A DNA stretch of 64,000 nucleotides, taken from positions 10,439-74,438 of the forward strand of contig JBBQXQ010000001.1 in the NCBI GenBank assembly GCA_038209515.1, written 5' to 3'. Every line of letters starts with the position of its first letter. Within the stretch, counting starts at the first letter, position 1. This document shows, in pieces, positions 32,435 to 37,421 of this stretch. This DNA comes from Gemmatimonadales bacterium (GTDB lineage: Bacteria; Gemmatimonadota; Gemmatimonadetes; Gemmatimonadales; GWC2-71-9). The notes under the pieces are model-generated. The model saw only the letters and a list, made by a program, of their open reading frames with translations, was not told the origin of the DNA and did not search any database. Made by a program: the position numbers and the translations under genes.

Positions 32435-33142
32435 TTGAGCGGCGGTGTCATCGCCATCGACGGGCCAGCGGCCTCGGGAAAGTCGAGTACCGCGCGCGCC
32501 GTGGCCGAAGCGCTCGGTCTTGCCCACCTCGATTCGGGCTCGCTCTACCGGGGGGTGACCCTCGTTGCCCTGCGAGAGGCGGCAAGGCGGGGGCTTCAGA
32601 CTGACGACCTCAGCACTCTCAGTCCTGAAACGATTTTGAGGGCCGCCGAGGATCGCGGCCTGATGCTTCAGCCGGACGAGGCCGGGTTCGCCGCGTATCT
32701 CGAAGGTGAGCCGGTGGACCTGGAGATCAGGAGCGCGAGGGTCACCGCGCAGGTCTCCGCCATCTCGGCTATTCCGGTGGTGCGCGAATGGATCAATGCC
32801 CGGTTGCGAGCCCTGGTTCGCGCGGGTCAGGACGTCGTGGTGGATGGACGGGATATCGGCACGGTGGTCTTTCCCGACGCCGACCTCAAAATCTTTCTGA
32901 CTGCGTCGCCTCAGGCTCGAGCGGGCCGCCGCATCAGCCAGCGCGGCATACCGGTACAGCCCGAGGGCCTCGATGCCGAAGCCGCCGCTCTGGCGGCGCG
33001 TGACCACGCCGATTCGACCCGGGCCGTGGCCCCGCTTCGGGCCGCCAGCGACGCGGTTCACCTTGACACCACCACCATGGACTTTGTCGAGCAGGTTCGC
33101 GTCATCGTGGACCGCGCCCGGCCGATCTTCTCCCGCCGCTGA
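32435..33142 (+). CDS. cmk: Cytidylate kinase
   Basis: TTG start. P-loop IAIDGPAASGKSS, plus DSGSLYR and VVDGRDIGTVVFPDA. Confidence 0.92.
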   Translation: MSGGVIAIDGPAASGKSSTARAVAEALGLAHLDSGSLYRGVTLVALREAARRGLQTDDLSTLSPETILRAAEDRGLMLQPDEAGFAAYLEGEPVDLEIRSARVTAQVSAISAIPVVREWINARLRALVRAGQDVVVDGRDIGTVVFPDADLKIFLTASPQARAGRRISQRGIPVQPEGLDAEAAALAARDHADSTRAVAPLRAASDAVHLDTTTMDFVEQVRVIVDRARPIFSRR

Positions 33143-33162
33143 GCTGACCCCACACCTCAAGC

Positions 33163-33174
33163 CCCAACCGATTG
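33163..33174. repeat. Left copy of flanking direct repeat CCCAACCGATTG
   Basis: Identical 12-mer at 35555-35566. Confidence 0.8.
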
Positions 33175-33290
33175 GCGCTGGTCCAATAAAGTTGTTACAA
33201 AGGAGGGATAGTGGGTCCTAACCCGCCACTTTGGCGAGCTTTGGGCAGTATTCGGCTTGTGCTTGAGCGTTCTGGAACACACATTCCGGC

Positions 33291-33668
33291 ATGGCCGAGG
33301 CTCCCCAGTCCATTTCCATTGTCTACGAAGAGCAGGACGTCCGTCCCACGATCCCCGTCAACGGGGCGATTGGGGGACCCTCTGTTGATGGCACCCTCGT
33401 CTTTATGCATGTCTATTCTGAGTTTGGCACCATTCCAGCGATGGAGGAGCATGAGGTGGGGCCAGGCGGACAGGTGGATGTGTCCAAGGGAAACATCATC
33501 AAACGAGGCACTCTTACCCGAAAAGTGCTTGCTACTCTGGTTCTTTCTCCCGAAGCCAGCGTGGTTGTCGGTAAATGGCTTCTTGAAAGAGCTGAGGTGG
33601 CGCGGCAGACTCGAACTCAGTACCAGGCTCATATGGATAAGCAGGCTAAGGCGGAGAAGCAGAAATGA
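33291..33668 (+). CDS. Passenger ORF1, hypothetical (DUF3467-like by eye)
   Basis: 125 aa. Beta-rich N-terminal half, then KVLATLVLSPEASVVVGKWLLERAE and a Lys/Gln-rich tail. This is the only protein-like frame here. Confidence 0.55.
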   Translation: MAEAPQSISIVYEEQDVRPTIPVNGAIGGPSVDGTLVFMHVYSEFGTIPAMEEHEVGPGGQVDVSKGNIIKRGTLTRKVLATLVLSPEASVVVGKWLLERAEVARQTRTQYQAHMDKQAKAEKQK

Positions 33669-34060
33669 GCAGCGCAGCGGCGGCGACCGCGTCGGCCAAG
33701 TGGCTTCGGCACACACCCCTGTCGTATACAACACTTGTGCGCCCACAAGCTGCTCCAGTGCCTGAGGCTTCCTCGCCGCCGGCGAGCATCCCAGGGCCAC
33801 TAGCCGGGCTTACGGTCCACCCGGGCCGACCCATCATCCGCCTTCATAAAGAGCCGTTCTTCGTGGAGCGGGACGGTGATACTGTCTACATCCGGCATGA
33901 GCGGTGGAGCCTTCTGGGCGCGGGGGAAACCCTTACGGCTGCATACAAGGATTTGCTGTCAGAGGCTTCCGACCTTGCGCCCGTTTTGGGTGCCATGCTA
34001 TTGAGCACATTCGACCAGGACGCTATGGATCTTTACCAATTCGTCCTTCGTATCGCATAG
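33665..34060 (+). CDS. Passenger ORF2, hypothetical (HicB/UPF0150-like C-terminal half)
   Basis: ATGA overlap with ORF1. FFVERDGDTVYIRHERWSLLGAGETLTAAYKDLLSEA resembles the HicB N-domain. The N-terminal ~55 aa are low complexity, so the start is uncertain. Confidence 0.5.
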   Translation: MSSAAAATASAKWLRHTPLSYTTLVRPQAAPVPEASSPPASIPGPLAGLTVHPGRPIIRLHKEPFFVERDGDTVYIRHERWSLLGAGETLTAAYKDLLSEASDLAPVLGAMLLSTFDQDAMDLYQFVLRIA

Positions 34061-34063
34061 GCA

Positions 34064-34375
34064 ATGCCTAGGGAACGTGCCGCGATTGTCTCCTCGCTTA
34101 CTTCCAAGGGTTTCGCACTTCGCCCGGGCAACCGGGACCACGATTACTACTTCTTTTCGCACGCAGGACTTACCCGCGCGGTCTTTACTAAGGTTTCGCG
34201 CGGTACGGCATTTCGGGAATACAACGATGGCTTGCTTAGTAAAATGAGTCGTCAACTCCAGCTTACACGCTCCCAATTGAATGACCTTATAGACTGTCCT
34301 TTGGATAGCCCTGGATACGTGACGGCCCTGACAGCTCGCGGAGTAATCCGGCCCTTGTCCCAAGGCGGTCAATGA
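34064..34375 (+). CDS. Passenger ORF3, hypothetical (HicA/YcfA-like)
   Basis: 103 aa starting 3 nt after ORF2. SLTSKGFALRPGNRDHDYYFF...TKVSRG...DGLLSKMSRQLQLTRSQLNDL parallels HicA toxins. Confidence 0.5.
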   Translation: MPRERAAIVSSLTSKGFALRPGNRDHDYYFFSHAGLTRAVFTKVSRGTAFREYNDGLLSKMSRQLQLTRSQLNDLIDCPLDSPGYVTALTARGVIRPLSQGGQ

Positions 34376-34623
34376 TGCATACTGGACGTATGCCTAAACG
34401 GTCAAGTAAGCCACCTACGGACCCCAACGAGGCCGCTTTCCGGGCCGTTGCTCGCTTGACGGGCACCGATCCCGATGCTGACGCACGGAGCCAAGCAGCG
34501 AGGCTGCTGGGCAGCCTGGGGGGCCGAATAGGAGGCCCGGCCCGGGCAAAGGTGCTCAGTGCCAAGCGACGAAAAGCCATCGCCAAAAAAGCGGCTCAGG
34601 CTCGCTGGCATAAGAAGGGCTAG
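34372..34623 (+). CDS. Passenger ORF4, small basic protein
   Basis: ATGA overlap with ORF3. C-terminal motif GGPARAKVLSAKRRKAIAKKAAQARWHKK. Confidence 0.5.
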   Translation: MMHTGRMPKRSSKPPTDPNEAAFRAVARLTGTDPDADARSQAARLLGSLGGRIGGPARAKVLSAKRRKAIAKKAAQARWHKKG

Positions 34624-34647
34624 GGCAGCCACCTAGCCCTCTTTCTT
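34617..34647 (+). terminator. Rho-independent terminator of the passenger cassette
   Basis: GGGCTAGG-loop(7)-CCTAGCCC followed by TCTTTCTT. The ORF4 stop codon lies in the stem. Confidence 0.65.
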
Positions 34648-34652
34648 GGCCC

Positions 34653-34681
34653 TTGCATTCTTGACCGCTCAAGCATAGATT
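34653..34681 (+). promoter_or_regulatory. Sigma-70-like promoter for the transposase (TTGCAT-17 nt-TAGATT)
   Basis: The -10 hexamer ends 7 nt before the ATG at 34689, which implies a leaderless or near-leaderless mRNA. Confidence 0.45.
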
Positions 34682-34688
34682 ATCTAGC

Positions 34689-35546
34689 ATGAATCGCCTC
34701 TCGCCAGCCGTACGCGGTACAGCCCTCCGGTGCTTGACGGACGGGATGAGTGTTCGGGCCGCCTCTCGGGTGGCTGGGATCAGCAAGGGTGCGGTCCTCC
34801 GGCTGCTGGCTGAGGCTGGGGAGTTTTGCTCGGCTTACCACTGCTTGCGGATGCGGAACCTTCCCACGGTCCGGGTCGAGGCAGATGAGCAGTGGAGTTT
34901 TTGCGGGACCAAGCAGAGGAATGCCACGCTACCGGGGCACGGCGACATTTGGACCTTCGCCGCAATAGATGCCGACACCAAGCTAGTCATCTCCTACCTG
35001 GTCGGCGCTCGGAATAACGAAAACACCTTCGCGTTCATGGAGGACCTGGCTGGCCGGGTCAAAGGACGTATCCAGCTCACCACGGACGGATGGCTCGGCT
35101 ACGTCACCGCCGTGCGCCATGCATTCGGGTTTGCCCGTTGCGACTTCGCCCAGCTTGTGAAGCAGTACGCTGTCTCGATAGACGAGGAAAGCCGTCGTCG
35201 CTACAGCCCGCCCATGTGCACCGGGGCAATGAAGATCCGGGTGATCGGTCGGCCCGACATGGACAAGGTGTCAACCTCCTACGTTGAAAACCTCAACCTC
35301 AACACCCGGCAGCACTGCAAGCGGTTTGCGAGGCTGACGATTGCCCATTCCAGGAAGGCCGAGAACCACGTTCACGCCGTCGCCCTCAACTTTTTCGTGC
35401 ACAACTTCATTCGGGTGCACTCCACTCTGACCAGCGAGCGGAAGGCTAAGACAACCCCGGCTATGGCTTCTGGCCTGACGGACCGCCCGTGGACGGTGGA
35501 CGACCTGCTAATTCTGATGGACCCGAAATCTGTTACAGTCAAATAG
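34689..35546 (+). CDS. IS1 family transposase (single ORF, no frameshift)
   Basis: 285 aa. N-terminal HTH; catalytic-region motifs ADEQWSF, TTDGWLGY and YVENLNLNTRQHCKRFARLTIAHSRK. The last matches the IS1 InsB signature [25 protein letters not shown]. Confidence 0.85.
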   Translation: MNRLSPAVRGTALRCLTDGMSVRAASRVAGISKGAVLRLLAEAGEFCSAYHCLRMRNLPTVRVEADEQWSFCGTKQRNATLPGHGDIWTFAAIDADTKLVISYLVGARNNENTFAFMEDLAGRVKGRIQLTTDGWLGYVTAVRHAFGFARCDFAQLVKQYAVSIDEESRRRYSPPMCTGAMKIRVIGRPDMDKVSTSYVENLNLNTRQHCKRFARLTIAHSRKAENHVHAVALNFFVHNFIRVHSTLTSERKAKTTPAMASGLTDRPWTVDDLLILMDPKSVTVK

Positions 35547-35554
35547 ACCCAGCG

Positions 35555-35566
35555 CCCAACCGATTG
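35555..35566. repeat. Right copy of flanking direct repeat CCCAACCGATTG
   Basis: Identical 12-mer at 33163-33174. Confidence 0.8.
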
Positions 35567-35699
35567 ATAGGCCTTGCGTTGTGGGGCTTCGGCCACTATC
35601 CTCATGGGCTCCCCACAGGCACTCCCGCCTGTGGCGCGACATGACTCTGGCCCGCGGCTTCCCCGGCGCGGCACTTTAATAAGGACGGCACAGCTTCGC

Positions 35700-37421
35700 A
35701 TGCTTGACCAACTCAATCCCTCAACCGACCACTCAACCGACCAGTTCATCTCCCCCACCGGCCTCCGCGTTCGGCAGGACCTCTACGACGAAGACTACAG
35801 CGACTCTGACTACGAGCAGATGCTCTTGATGTACGAGGGCACCATGTCGCAGATCGTTGAAGGTGAGATCGTCAAATCCAAGGTCCTCCGGGTCACAGAC
35901 AATGCGGTAATTCTCGACGTAGGCTTCAAGTCCGAGGGGTCGGTCCCACTGGATGAGTTTAAGGACCCCCACTCGCTGAAAGAGGGCGACGAGGTCGAGG
36001 TCTTCCTCGAGCACCTGGAGGATCAGGAAGGCGCCGTCGTCCTGTCGAAGAAGAAGGCCGACTTCATGCGGGTCTGGGAAAAGATCCGCGTGGCGCACGA
36101 GAGCGATCAGCCGGTCGAGGGCACCCTGGTCAAGAAGATCAAGGGCGGTGTGGTAGTGAATCTCATGGGGGTGGACGCGTTCCTTCCGGGGAGCCAGATC
36201 GCGCTCCGCCGGGTGCCGAATATCGACGAGCTACTGGGCCAGACCTACGAATTCAAGATCATCAAGCTGAACAAGCGGCGCCGGAACATCGTGGTCAGCC
36301 GGCGGGTGATTCTGGAAAACGAGCGGGCGCACAAGCGCGAGCACCTGATGAAGGAGCTCGCTGTCGGCCAGGTACGAAAGGGCGTGGTCAAGAACATCAC
36401 CGACTTCGGCGCCTTCATCGACCTGGGCGGCGTCGACGGCCTGCTGCACATCACCGACATGTCGTACGGCCGGGTCTCCCATCCGACCGAGATGGTCGCC
36501 ATCGGCAAGGAAGTCGAGGTGAAAATCCTCGATATCGACTGGCAGCGCGAGCGCATCAGCCTCGGCATGAAGCAGCTCCAGTCCTACCCCTGGCAGAACG
36601 TGGCGGCCAAGTATCCGGTCGGCACCCGCGTCCAGGGCAAGGTCGTATCGATCACCAATTACGGCGCCTTCGTCGAGATCGAGCCCGGCATCGAAGGCTT
36701 GGTGCACATCTCCGAGATGAGCTGGACCCGCAACGTCCGGCATCCCTCGAAGATCGTCAGCATCGGTGAGACCATCGAGGCAGTGGTGCTCAAGGTGGAC
36801 GAGGCGGAGGAGAAGATCTCGCTCGGCATGAAGCAGACCGAGCAGGATCCCTGGATGGTGCTTCCACTCAAGTACCCGGTGGGCACTCGCATCAACGGCA
36901 AGGTGCGGAACCTGACCAGCTTCGGCGCCTTCGTCGAGATCGAGCCGGGGATCGATGGCCTCATCCACATCTCCGACATGTCCTGGACCAAGCGGGTCCA
37001 GCATCCGTCCGAAGTGGTCAAGAAGGGCGACGCGGTGGACGTTGTGATCCTCAACATCGACGCGGAGAACAAGCGGATCTCGCTCGGGCTCAAGCAGGCG
37101 GAAGAGGATCCCTGGCTCAAGATCGGTGAGACCTATCCCATCGGGATGGAGCTTCGCGGCCGGGCCGTGCGGCTGATGGACAAGGGCGTGGTGGTCGATC
37201 TGGGCAACGATATCGAGGGATTCGTCCCGATGTCCCAGCTGGGCGTCCCCAACATCGAGAACCCCGGCGAGGCAGTGAAGGAAGGCCAGGTCCTCGATCT
37301 CAAGGTGCTCGAGGTGGACCCGATCCATCACCGGATCGTGCTCGCCGTCATCGGGTACCCCGACGAGCCGATCATTCCGCCCGTGAAGCCGGCGTTCGAG
37401 GAGACAACGGTGACGGAATAG
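35700..37421 (+). CDS. rpsA: 30S ribosomal protein S1
   Basis: ATG at 35700 (AAGGA upstream). Six S1-domain repeats with recurring G.V..I..FGAFV.L..G..GL.H.S motif. Confidence 0.93.

Follow-up and report, generated by a model that had tools for sequence, protein, structure and literature searches.

The DNA analyzed here (hereafter the window) is a stretch of 64,000 nucleotides (nt) from Gemmatimonadales bacterium assembly GCA_038209515.1, contig JBBQXQ010000001.1, positions 10,439 to 74,438 of the forward strand. Within it, the genes for cytidylate kinase (cmk) and ribosomal protein S1 (rpsA) are separated by a 2383-bp segment (33174-35556) that starts with GGCGCTGG, ends with CCAGCGCC and carries five co-oriented open reading frames (ORFs) of 125, 131, 103, 83 and 285 amino acids (aa). 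We identify this segment with high confidence as a cargo-carrying insertion sequence (IS) of the IS1 family. Its placement between cmk and rpsA, proposed in an earlier sequence-only reading of this DNA, was confirmed by Pfam matches to both flanking genes; cmk, rpsA and the putative rpsA promoter are undamaged by the insertion. The features of the locus are listed below, and sequences used for comparison are referred to by L numbers.

32435-33142, plus strand: cmk (cytidylate kinase), host gene of the left flank, intact (Pfam Cytidylate_kin, E = 8e-60)
33165-33173: left copy of the 9-bp target-site duplication CAACCGATT, present as a single copy at the L007 empty site
33174-33199, plus strand: terminal inverted repeat of the left end, GGCGCTGGTCCAATAAAGTTGTTACA, tip GGnnnTG; its equivalents delimit the homology in L002, L003, L005, L118, L128-L132 and L134
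33291-33668, plus strand: ORF1, 125 aa, part of a conserved cargo module (ORF1-ORF3) that recurs in L005 and, as judged by eye, in L118
33665-34060, plus strand: ORF2, 131 aa, HicB-like antitoxin candidate (AlphaFold2 (AF2) model and Foldseek)
34064-34375, plus strand: ORF3, 103 aa, HicA-like toxin candidate with an invariant His26 (AF2, Foldseek and alignment)
34390-34623, plus strand, alternative start 34372 (34372-34623 = 83 aa): OrfX, a small basic protein (ORF4 of the sequence-only reading), conserved across the family as a core gene
34616-34640, plus strand: terminator-like hairpin between OrfX and the transposase gene (pattern match only)
34689-35546, plus strand: single-ORF IS1-family DDE transposase, 285 aa, with an N-terminal helix-turn-helix and the motifs EADEQW, TTDGW and VENLNLNTRQ
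35531-35556, minus strand: right terminal inverted repeat, complement GGCGCTGGGTCTATTTGACTGTAACA, overlapping the final transposase codons; contig L001 stops exactly at its tip
35557-35565: right copy of the 9-bp target-site duplication CAACCGATT (sequence and comparison of copies)
35574-35602, plus strand: putative rpsA promoter, -35 TTGCGT (35574-35579), 17-nt spacer, -10 TATCCT (35597-35602), hexamers kept in 11 element-free relatives
35700-37421, plus strand: rpsA (ribosomal protein S1), host gene of the right flank, intact (Pfam S1, six repeats, E = 8e-96)

The window contains just two copies of the 12-mer CCCAACCGATTG (33163-33174 and 35555-35566), at the positions where the sequence-only reading had placed a 12-nt direct repeat. 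With one mismatch tolerated, shuffled sequences contained a mean of 0.34 matches, and at least 2 matches were seen in 5 of 100 shuffles. The true duplication, however, is the 9-bp CAACCGATT, which is of ordinary size. That reading had suspected part of the 12-mer to be coincidental, and three bases indeed are: the CC of the right copy is the tip of the right repeat and the G of the left copy is the first base of the left repeat, both matching the flank by chance. The imperfect inverted repeats it described are likewise real, but comparison with other copies shifts their boundaries to 33174 and 35556. Counted from the sequence, 17 of 26 positions match between the two arms (33174-33199 and 35531-35556), and both tips of the element read GGCGCTG, that is, GGnnnTG.

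A scan of the genome collection with the cmk protein returned 28 Gemmatimonadales loci, many of which have an element-free cmk-rpsA spacer of about 170-280 bp. In a related Gemmatimonadales genome (L007) the empty site reads ...GGCAACCGATTGATGGGCCTTGCGTTG..., and its spacer (...CAACAGGCAACCGATTGATGGGCCTTGCGTTGTGGGGCG...) equals the window sequence minus the element and minus one 9-mer; ten further relatives have short element-free spacers. An empty site with one copy of the repeat had thus been correctly predicted, although the full 12-mer is not present there, only a single CAACCGATT. Counted from the end of the duplication, the insertion point lies 8 nt upstream of the -35 hexamer of rpsA, and it is 22 nt past the cmk stop codon. 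This closeness to the promoter had escaped the sequence-only reading. The hexamers TTGCGT and TAnnnT, 16-18 nt apart, are conserved before rpsA in 11 element-free relatives in an alignment of the spacers and are therefore read as the rpsA promoter. A simple promoter scanner did not call this promoter, since TTGCGT matches at only 3 of 6 positions; its support is the conservation. Since the same hexamers are kept in element-free relatives, the promoter as a part of the element is ruled out.

None of the loci seen carried the element's genes between cmk and rpsA while lacking repeats or a duplication, and the empty-site relatives lack all five genes. This bears on the alternative of a minimal transposase-only IS of about 0.9 kb lying beside unrelated host genes, a reading prompted by the homology to L002 and L003, which begins only about 19 bp before the transposase start codon. 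The data contradict it, and we consider it very improbable. The 9-bp duplication brackets the whole 2383 bp, nothing resembling the right-end repeat lies at 34625-34688 (as the sequence-only reading had also stated), L005 carries the entire unit in a different genomic context, and no cargo-free copy, or bare IS, was found among 12 independent elements.

Several other observations concern the spacer itself. The idea of cmk-rpsA as a general insertion hotspot is weak, most spacers being short and empty; some relatives have other genes there, encoding a response regulator, a beta-lactamase-like protein or a ligase-like protein. In another Gemmatimonadales species (L020:6780-7016) cmk is directly followed by what is left of the C-terminal end of a different IS1-type transposase (47% identical), with a response-regulator gene between this relic and rpsA. 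A 17-nt inverted repeat (82% complementary) brackets the insertion in the window (33148-33164 and 35570-35586); at the empty site about 14 nt would separate its arms, which would surround the target and overlap the -35 hexamer.

The transposase scored 47.4 bits against Pfam DDE_Tnp_IS1 (PF03400; cut-off 24.1), the profile check by which its IS1 type was to be judged. In BLASTP against Escherichia coli IS1 InsAB', rebuilt from NC_000913, it gave E = 1e-10 at 25% identity, with the helix-turn-helix and the three catalytic motifs aligned (EADEQW with EMDEQW, TDGW with TDGW and VENLNLNTRQ with ERHNLNLRQ). The alignment begins after the Cys-pair region of InsAB'; the N-terminus of the transposase has no CxxC pairs, and about 45 additional residues lie between its second Asp and Glu relative to IS1. 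Roughly 7500 homologues were found, the closest being named "IS1 family transposase" in Gemmatimonadales metagenome-assembled genomes, and plasmid relatives at 44-46% identity carry IS1 family annotation. GGnnnTG ends and 8-9-bp duplications are tabulated as features of the IS1 family (PMC10425158, PMC6807381). Together with these tips, the profile and BLASTP matches upheld the description of the right-end gene as a single-ORF IS1-type transposase. The gene is intact, and ratios of nonsynonymous to synonymous substitution (dN/dS) of 0.06-0.15 against seven intact relatives point to purifying selection.

The element shares with E. coli IS1 a homologous DDE transposase, GGnnnTG tips and 8-9-bp duplications. 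IS1 is 768 bp long and encodes InsA, with an N-terminal zinc finger, and InsAB', made by -1 frameshift; the canonical IS1 group is defined by a length of 740-1180 bp, two ORFs fused by -1 frameshift and a zinc finger in InsA. Unlike these, the window element has 2383 bp, one 285-aa ORF without a Cys-pair region, four extra genes and a fixed distance to a promoter. Traits of a site-specific integrating island (tyrosine or serine recombinase type) were absent: none of the five element proteins has a recombinase domain, and the ends are inverted repeats with a 9-bp duplication. Likeness of the transposase N-terminus to sigma-factor region 4 was considered and dropped, as only generic HTH_28/HTH_23 matches (E of about 0.01) were obtained. 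Downstream of the hairpin, within 34616-34690, a promoter-like TTGACC - 18 nt - TAGCAT has its -10 overlapping the transposase ATG, and the transposase mRNA may be leaderless or have a very short leader.

We searched for related elements on the contigs of the closest transposase homologues and in one metagenome scan. As the sequence-only reading had predicted for other copies, 11 further independent insertions, 12 with the window, share the same repeats, flanked by 8-9-bp duplications. All carry cargo and they measure 2.3-3.9 kb. A duplication of 8-9 bp was found in all ten other complete clade elements with both flanks available, and also in L092 and L095. All close relatives have GGCGCTGG...TGTTACA as their left end and TGTTACAGTCAAATAGACCCAGCGCC as their right end. 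The full-length relative in L005 (transposase 85% identical) lies in an unrelated genomic context, is homologous to window 33174-35558 and is flanked by the 8-bp duplication CACCTTGC. It begins and ends at the same repeats, which places the passenger genes inside the element, as had been suggested from the window alone.

Cargo differs among elements with the same ends. The ORF1-ORF2-ORF3 module is common to the window, L005 and L118; elsewhere we found Trypsin_2, GmrSD and NikA-like genes (L128), a P63C protein (L003 and L132), an NYN-domain protein (L002), DUF4760 (L130) and an SDH_protease/NfeD-type protein (L131). One IS-type transposase together with passenger genes within one pair of terminal repeats is the arrangement described for transporter IS (tIS; PMC9330008, PMC7986276). 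The window element is of this kind: its duplication brackets five genes, the unit recurs in L005, and the cargo varies within the same ends. A more distant subfamily, represented by L092:127-3041 (48% transposase identity) and L095:4486-6873 (56%), has GGTAGTG tips, 8-9-bp duplications and cargo, with OrfX in L092. In L139:1043-1410 the right repeat lies about 367 bp beyond the transposase stop codon, which it overlaps in all others. A scan of viral contigs with the right-repeat pattern gave two chance matches of low G+C content without a transposase, which were discarded.

The sequence-only reading had counted four unrelated passengers, which did not hold. OrfX, whole or truncated, is present in every complete element examined, even where the transposase is only 47-56% identical. 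We therefore regard it not as a passenger but as a second core gene, conserved across the family. Its motif is MPKRSSKP..DPNxAAF..V..LTG ... GG..GG.ARA..LS..RR..IA.KAA.ARW, cut down to the N-terminal part in three elements (L003, L128 and L132). About 8000 homologues exist, with no Pfam domain and almost no names, and many of them lie on contigs equal in size to contigs among the transposase matches. The P63C-domain cargo proteins of L003 (4862-5875) and L132 (4838-5605, minus strand) carry the OrfX C-terminal motif (GGxARAxxLSxExRxEIAxxAAxxRW) at their start, and the adjoining OrfX gene is truncated to the N-terminal motif.

For ORF2 and ORF3, the best reading of the structural models is a HicB/HicA-like antitoxin-toxin pair, because the matches of both point to the same system. 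The AF2 model of ORF3 (mean predicted local distance difference test (pLDDT) 83.7) had as its top two Foldseek hits the HicA-family structure 1whz (probability 1.00, TM 0.78 on target) and the HicA 6g26_E. The model of ORF2 (mean pLDDT 83.5, with a folded domain at residues of about 57-130 and pLDDT of about 95) best matched antitoxin 3k6q (probability 0.96) and HicB 6g1n_C (probability 0.82), and also 6g1c. Like HicAB type II toxin-antitoxin systems, the candidate pair is encoded by adjacent genes and ORF3 has an invariant His; it differs in gene order (antitoxin, then toxin), in three extra C-terminal helices of ORF3, in having no Pfam match and in its weak structural E-values. Neither ORF2 nor ORF3 matched a Pfam family at E <= 0.1, and a Pfam scan of 69 ORF2 homologues returned no family. 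ORF1 had no match in Pfam, NCBIfam, PADLOC or PHROGs, the last three gave nothing useful for ORF1-4 as a whole, and no significant match came from PDB sequence searches that used ORF3, OrfX, the transposase or an ORF2 profile as query.

Having defined the ends in this set of elements, we compared their positions. In each case listed below, the right duplication copy is followed after 7-8 nt by a sigma-70-type promoter-like match, and the transposase gene is always directed towards it. Matches were found with a simple weighted -35/-10 score scanned within 110 nt of the right tip. The best match begins 15-17 nt past the right tip in 10 of 12 independent insertions. A score of at least 10 at this offset was reached at 7 of 12 sites, compared to 0.35% of 200,000 random positions in the same loci; no left flank, read outward, scored 7 or more. 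Ten downstream genes were identified, and rpsA, rho, fusA, ffh, rplM and cspA account for six of them. For each of the ten insertions, the downstream gene, gap after the duplication and promoter-like match are as follows.

Window, rpsA: gap gataggcc, -35 TTGCGT, spacer 17, -10 TATCCT
L118, rho: gap cagacctc, -35 TTGACG, spacer 17, -10 TAACTT
L129, fusA (after rpsL-rpsG): gap ataaaggg, -35 TTGACG, spacer 16, -10 TATTTT
L130, ffh-rpsP-rimM-trmD-rplS: gap cccttcgc, -35 TTGTCC, spacer 17, -10 TATGCT
L139, rplM-rpsI-rpsB-tsf: gap ggggctac, -35 TTGACC, spacer 17-18, -10 TTAATT (17) or TAATTT (18)
L003, Gcw_chp-domain gene: gap tggtagcc, -35 TTGACG, spacer 16, -10 TACATT
L128, contig ends: gap agccgccc, -35 TTGATC, spacer 17, -10 TATACT
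L005, downstream gene not identified: gap cttagcc, -35 TTATCT, spacer 18, -10 TATCTT
L134, yggS-like gene: gap caggtccc, -35 TTCTAG, spacer 17, -10 TATTTT
L131, yggS-like gene (by similarity to L134): gap tccccggc, -35 TCCCTT, spacer 17, -10 TAAATT

In L129:2761-7879 the element lies within the rpsL-rpsG-fusA cluster and separates rpsG from fusA, with all its genes co-oriented with the cluster and the promoter-like site before fusA. L131 and L134 belong to different species, and in each the right tip stands 54 nt before the start codon of one and the same gene. Their perfect 9-bp duplications differ (GACCCTGGC and GCCATCCCT), so these are independent insertions at the same position.

Such a pattern could arise without any target preference, if an ordinary IS1-type element landed at random and survived only in the narrow harmless gap before the promoters of essential genes. 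Selection against disruptive insertions must contribute, and with a mere 31 nt or so of free space from the end of cmk to the -35 hexamer of rpsA, it would on its own strongly limit the position in the window. Moreover, all 12 sites come from contigs assembled through the element, a sample biased towards old, long-resident insertions of low or single copy number. Three distant relatives, L092, L093 and L095 (transposase 47-56% identical, the ends of L093 being undefined), have no adjacent promoter, so promoter adjacency seems to belong to the GGCGCTGG clade. Within that clade two sites are exceptions: in L132 (cspA-infA) TTGACG abuts the duplication, and L097 has no promoter and a frameshifted transposase gene. 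The -35 hexamers at L131 and L134 are poor, and the promoters are predicted, not mapped. Points that weigh against our overall explanation were also met elsewhere in the analysis. The transposase scored 70.2 bits against NCBIfam transpos_IS1 (NF033558), under the cut-off of 100, which marks it as a divergent member of the IS1 family; the Foldseek E-values are weak (4e-3 for the HicA-like match, 0.2-0.3 for the HicB-like matches, 0.2 at best); and transposition was not observed, nor did blastn and tblastn detect a second copy or fragment of the element in the window.

Selection nevertheless leaves unexplained the fixed gap of 7-8 nt and the single orientation at 10 of 12 sites, whose intergenic regions vary in length (the next gene starts 54-251 nt from the right tip). 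Nor does it account for L131 and L134, where one position before one gene was hit twice independently. A back-of-envelope binomial estimate, with 3 favored offsets among about 90 scanned, gives approximately 1e-13. We therefore regard random landing followed by selection as unlikely and, since selection by itself hardly accounts for a constant offset and orientation, on balance favor active targeting of promoter architecture.

The age of the insertion in the window is a separate matter. An element occupies the same cmk-rpsA site in L002 (L002:115-3979), with the same 9-bp duplication and the closest other transposase (90% aa identity, synonymous divergence (dS) 0.67), and the flanks of L002 and the window are about 90% identical. 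Homology between the two elements is limited to the first 43 bp or so and the last 1 kb or so, while the 2.9-kb interior of L002 differs (the NYN-domain gene and others). The window element might thus be an old immobile resident, inherited vertically at cmk-rpsA together with that of L002, whose cargo was later replaced by recombination between family members. Such recombination is suggested by the mosaic identity of the window and L005, which reaches 93% aa in OrfX and 85% aa in the transposase and only 56% aa in ORF1-3; at the DNA level window 34370-35558 is 82.6% identical to L005, and the ORF1-3 part (33174-34370) is much more diverged in protein. Against immobility, the transposase is intact and under strong purifying selection (dN/dS 0.09 compared to L002). 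Two independent insertions at the rpsA promoter would also give the same duplication if placement is precise, as the L131/L134 case shows to be possible. The shared site of L002 and the window can be read either way, as one old insertion with a cargo swap or as two independent insertions permitted by precise targeting.

The only identical DNA found elsewhere is a 1073-bp contig (L001, Logan SRR19962011), 100% identical to window 34484-35556. It breaks exactly at the right tip, a hint of more than one flank in that sample. We consider an old immobile resident possible but lean towards an autonomous, mobile element. Positive support for a relatively recent insertion, as suggested in the sequence-only reading, was not obtained either: beyond the 1073-bp contig, the closest other transposase is at dS 0.67 and at the same site. 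That reading had also drawn on a contrast in G+C content. The element is indeed lower, but the difference (58.7% versus 65.4% in the remaining window) is smaller than the single lines quoted had implied. G+C content is 56-61% across family members and 62-69% in their hosts; being common to all members whatever the host, the low value lends no support to a recent insertion.

Taken together, we hold it very probable that the window carries an autonomous cargo-carrying IS1-family transporter IS, for which we infer promoter-directed placement and current activity. In this reading the 26-bp terminal repeats are the binding sites of the DDE transposase, which would cleave at their GG tips and link the ends to a target opened with an 8-9-bp stagger, giving rise to the duplication CAACCGATT. 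OrfX, the HicB/HicA-like pair and one ORF without a predicted function are carried in the stretch from the left repeat to the transposase gene, and the pair, if it functions as a toxin-antitoxin system, would probably discourage loss of the element. As the position seen in the window is the rule in the GGCGCTGG clade, the transposition complex would be guided to one constant site and orientation immediately ahead of promoters, in a zone of about -45 to -53 if the usual numbering of the -35 element is presumed. The feature recognized might be the RNA polymerase holoenzyme, the shape of DNA where the promoter begins on its upstream side, or the -35 sequence. Reading of the -35 hexamer by the end-binding domain of the transposase appears unlikely, as the right repeat contains TTGAC but the left repeats do not, the shared inner box being TGTWACA. 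That OrfX acts as an adaptor for promoter recognition is speculation. We see the arguments as evenly balanced on the more specific proposal that the clade targets promoters, possibly via OrfX reading holoenzyme or promoter architecture, and inserts about 8 bp before the -35 in one orientation, favoring strongly expressed housekeeping genes.

What is new about this clade is the conserved OrfX and the promoter-proximal, oriented placement; the kind of element itself, a cargo-carrying IS1-type IS, is known. A long single-ORF ISMhu11 subgroup of the IS1 family is listed in ISfinder, and the element may belong to it. Our literature search found no papers on ISMhu11 and nothing relevant on promoter-targeting insertion sequences, and to our knowledge neither a conserved second core gene nor promoter-proximal placement is a described feature of that subgroup. 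In outcome, the closest likeness is to the retrotransposons Ty3 of yeast and TRE5-A of Dictyostelium, which are directed to RNA polymerase III (Pol III) genes and integrate at a fixed short distance upstream and in fixed orientation, sparing the gene. Insertions of the clade described here likewise lie upstream at a fixed distance and orientation and spare the gene. The enzymes differ, however, as a retroviral-type integrase or reverse transcriptase is unrelated to a DDE IS transposase, and tethering to transcription factors has been shown experimentally for Ty3 and TRE5-A, whereas for the IS1-type clade a contact with RNA polymerase is proposed.

Most insertion sequences choose their targets loosely, and the few precise ones, such as Tn7, CRISPR-associated transposons and the IS110 bridge-RNA elements, became tools and models. 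If the proposed targeting is true, a DDE element that reads promoter geometry would represent a new route of a bacterial transposon to a harmless site, the equivalent in bacteria of what Ty3 and TRE5-A achieve by Pol III-directed integration, one that offers a safe landing site and a natural promoter-guided system of DNA insertion. Contact between an element protein and the transcription machinery would become directly testable. Even if targeting reflects selection only, the natural insertions of this family mark out, cleanly, where "safe harbour" positions lie ahead of core promoters. In the Gemmatimonadales, a poorly studied soil group, the family transports diverse genes, among them those for a GmrSD-type restriction enzyme, toxin-antitoxin-like pairs and P63C proteins, and promoter-directed placement would account for the persistence of its elements next to essential genes, rpsA, rho and fusA among them.

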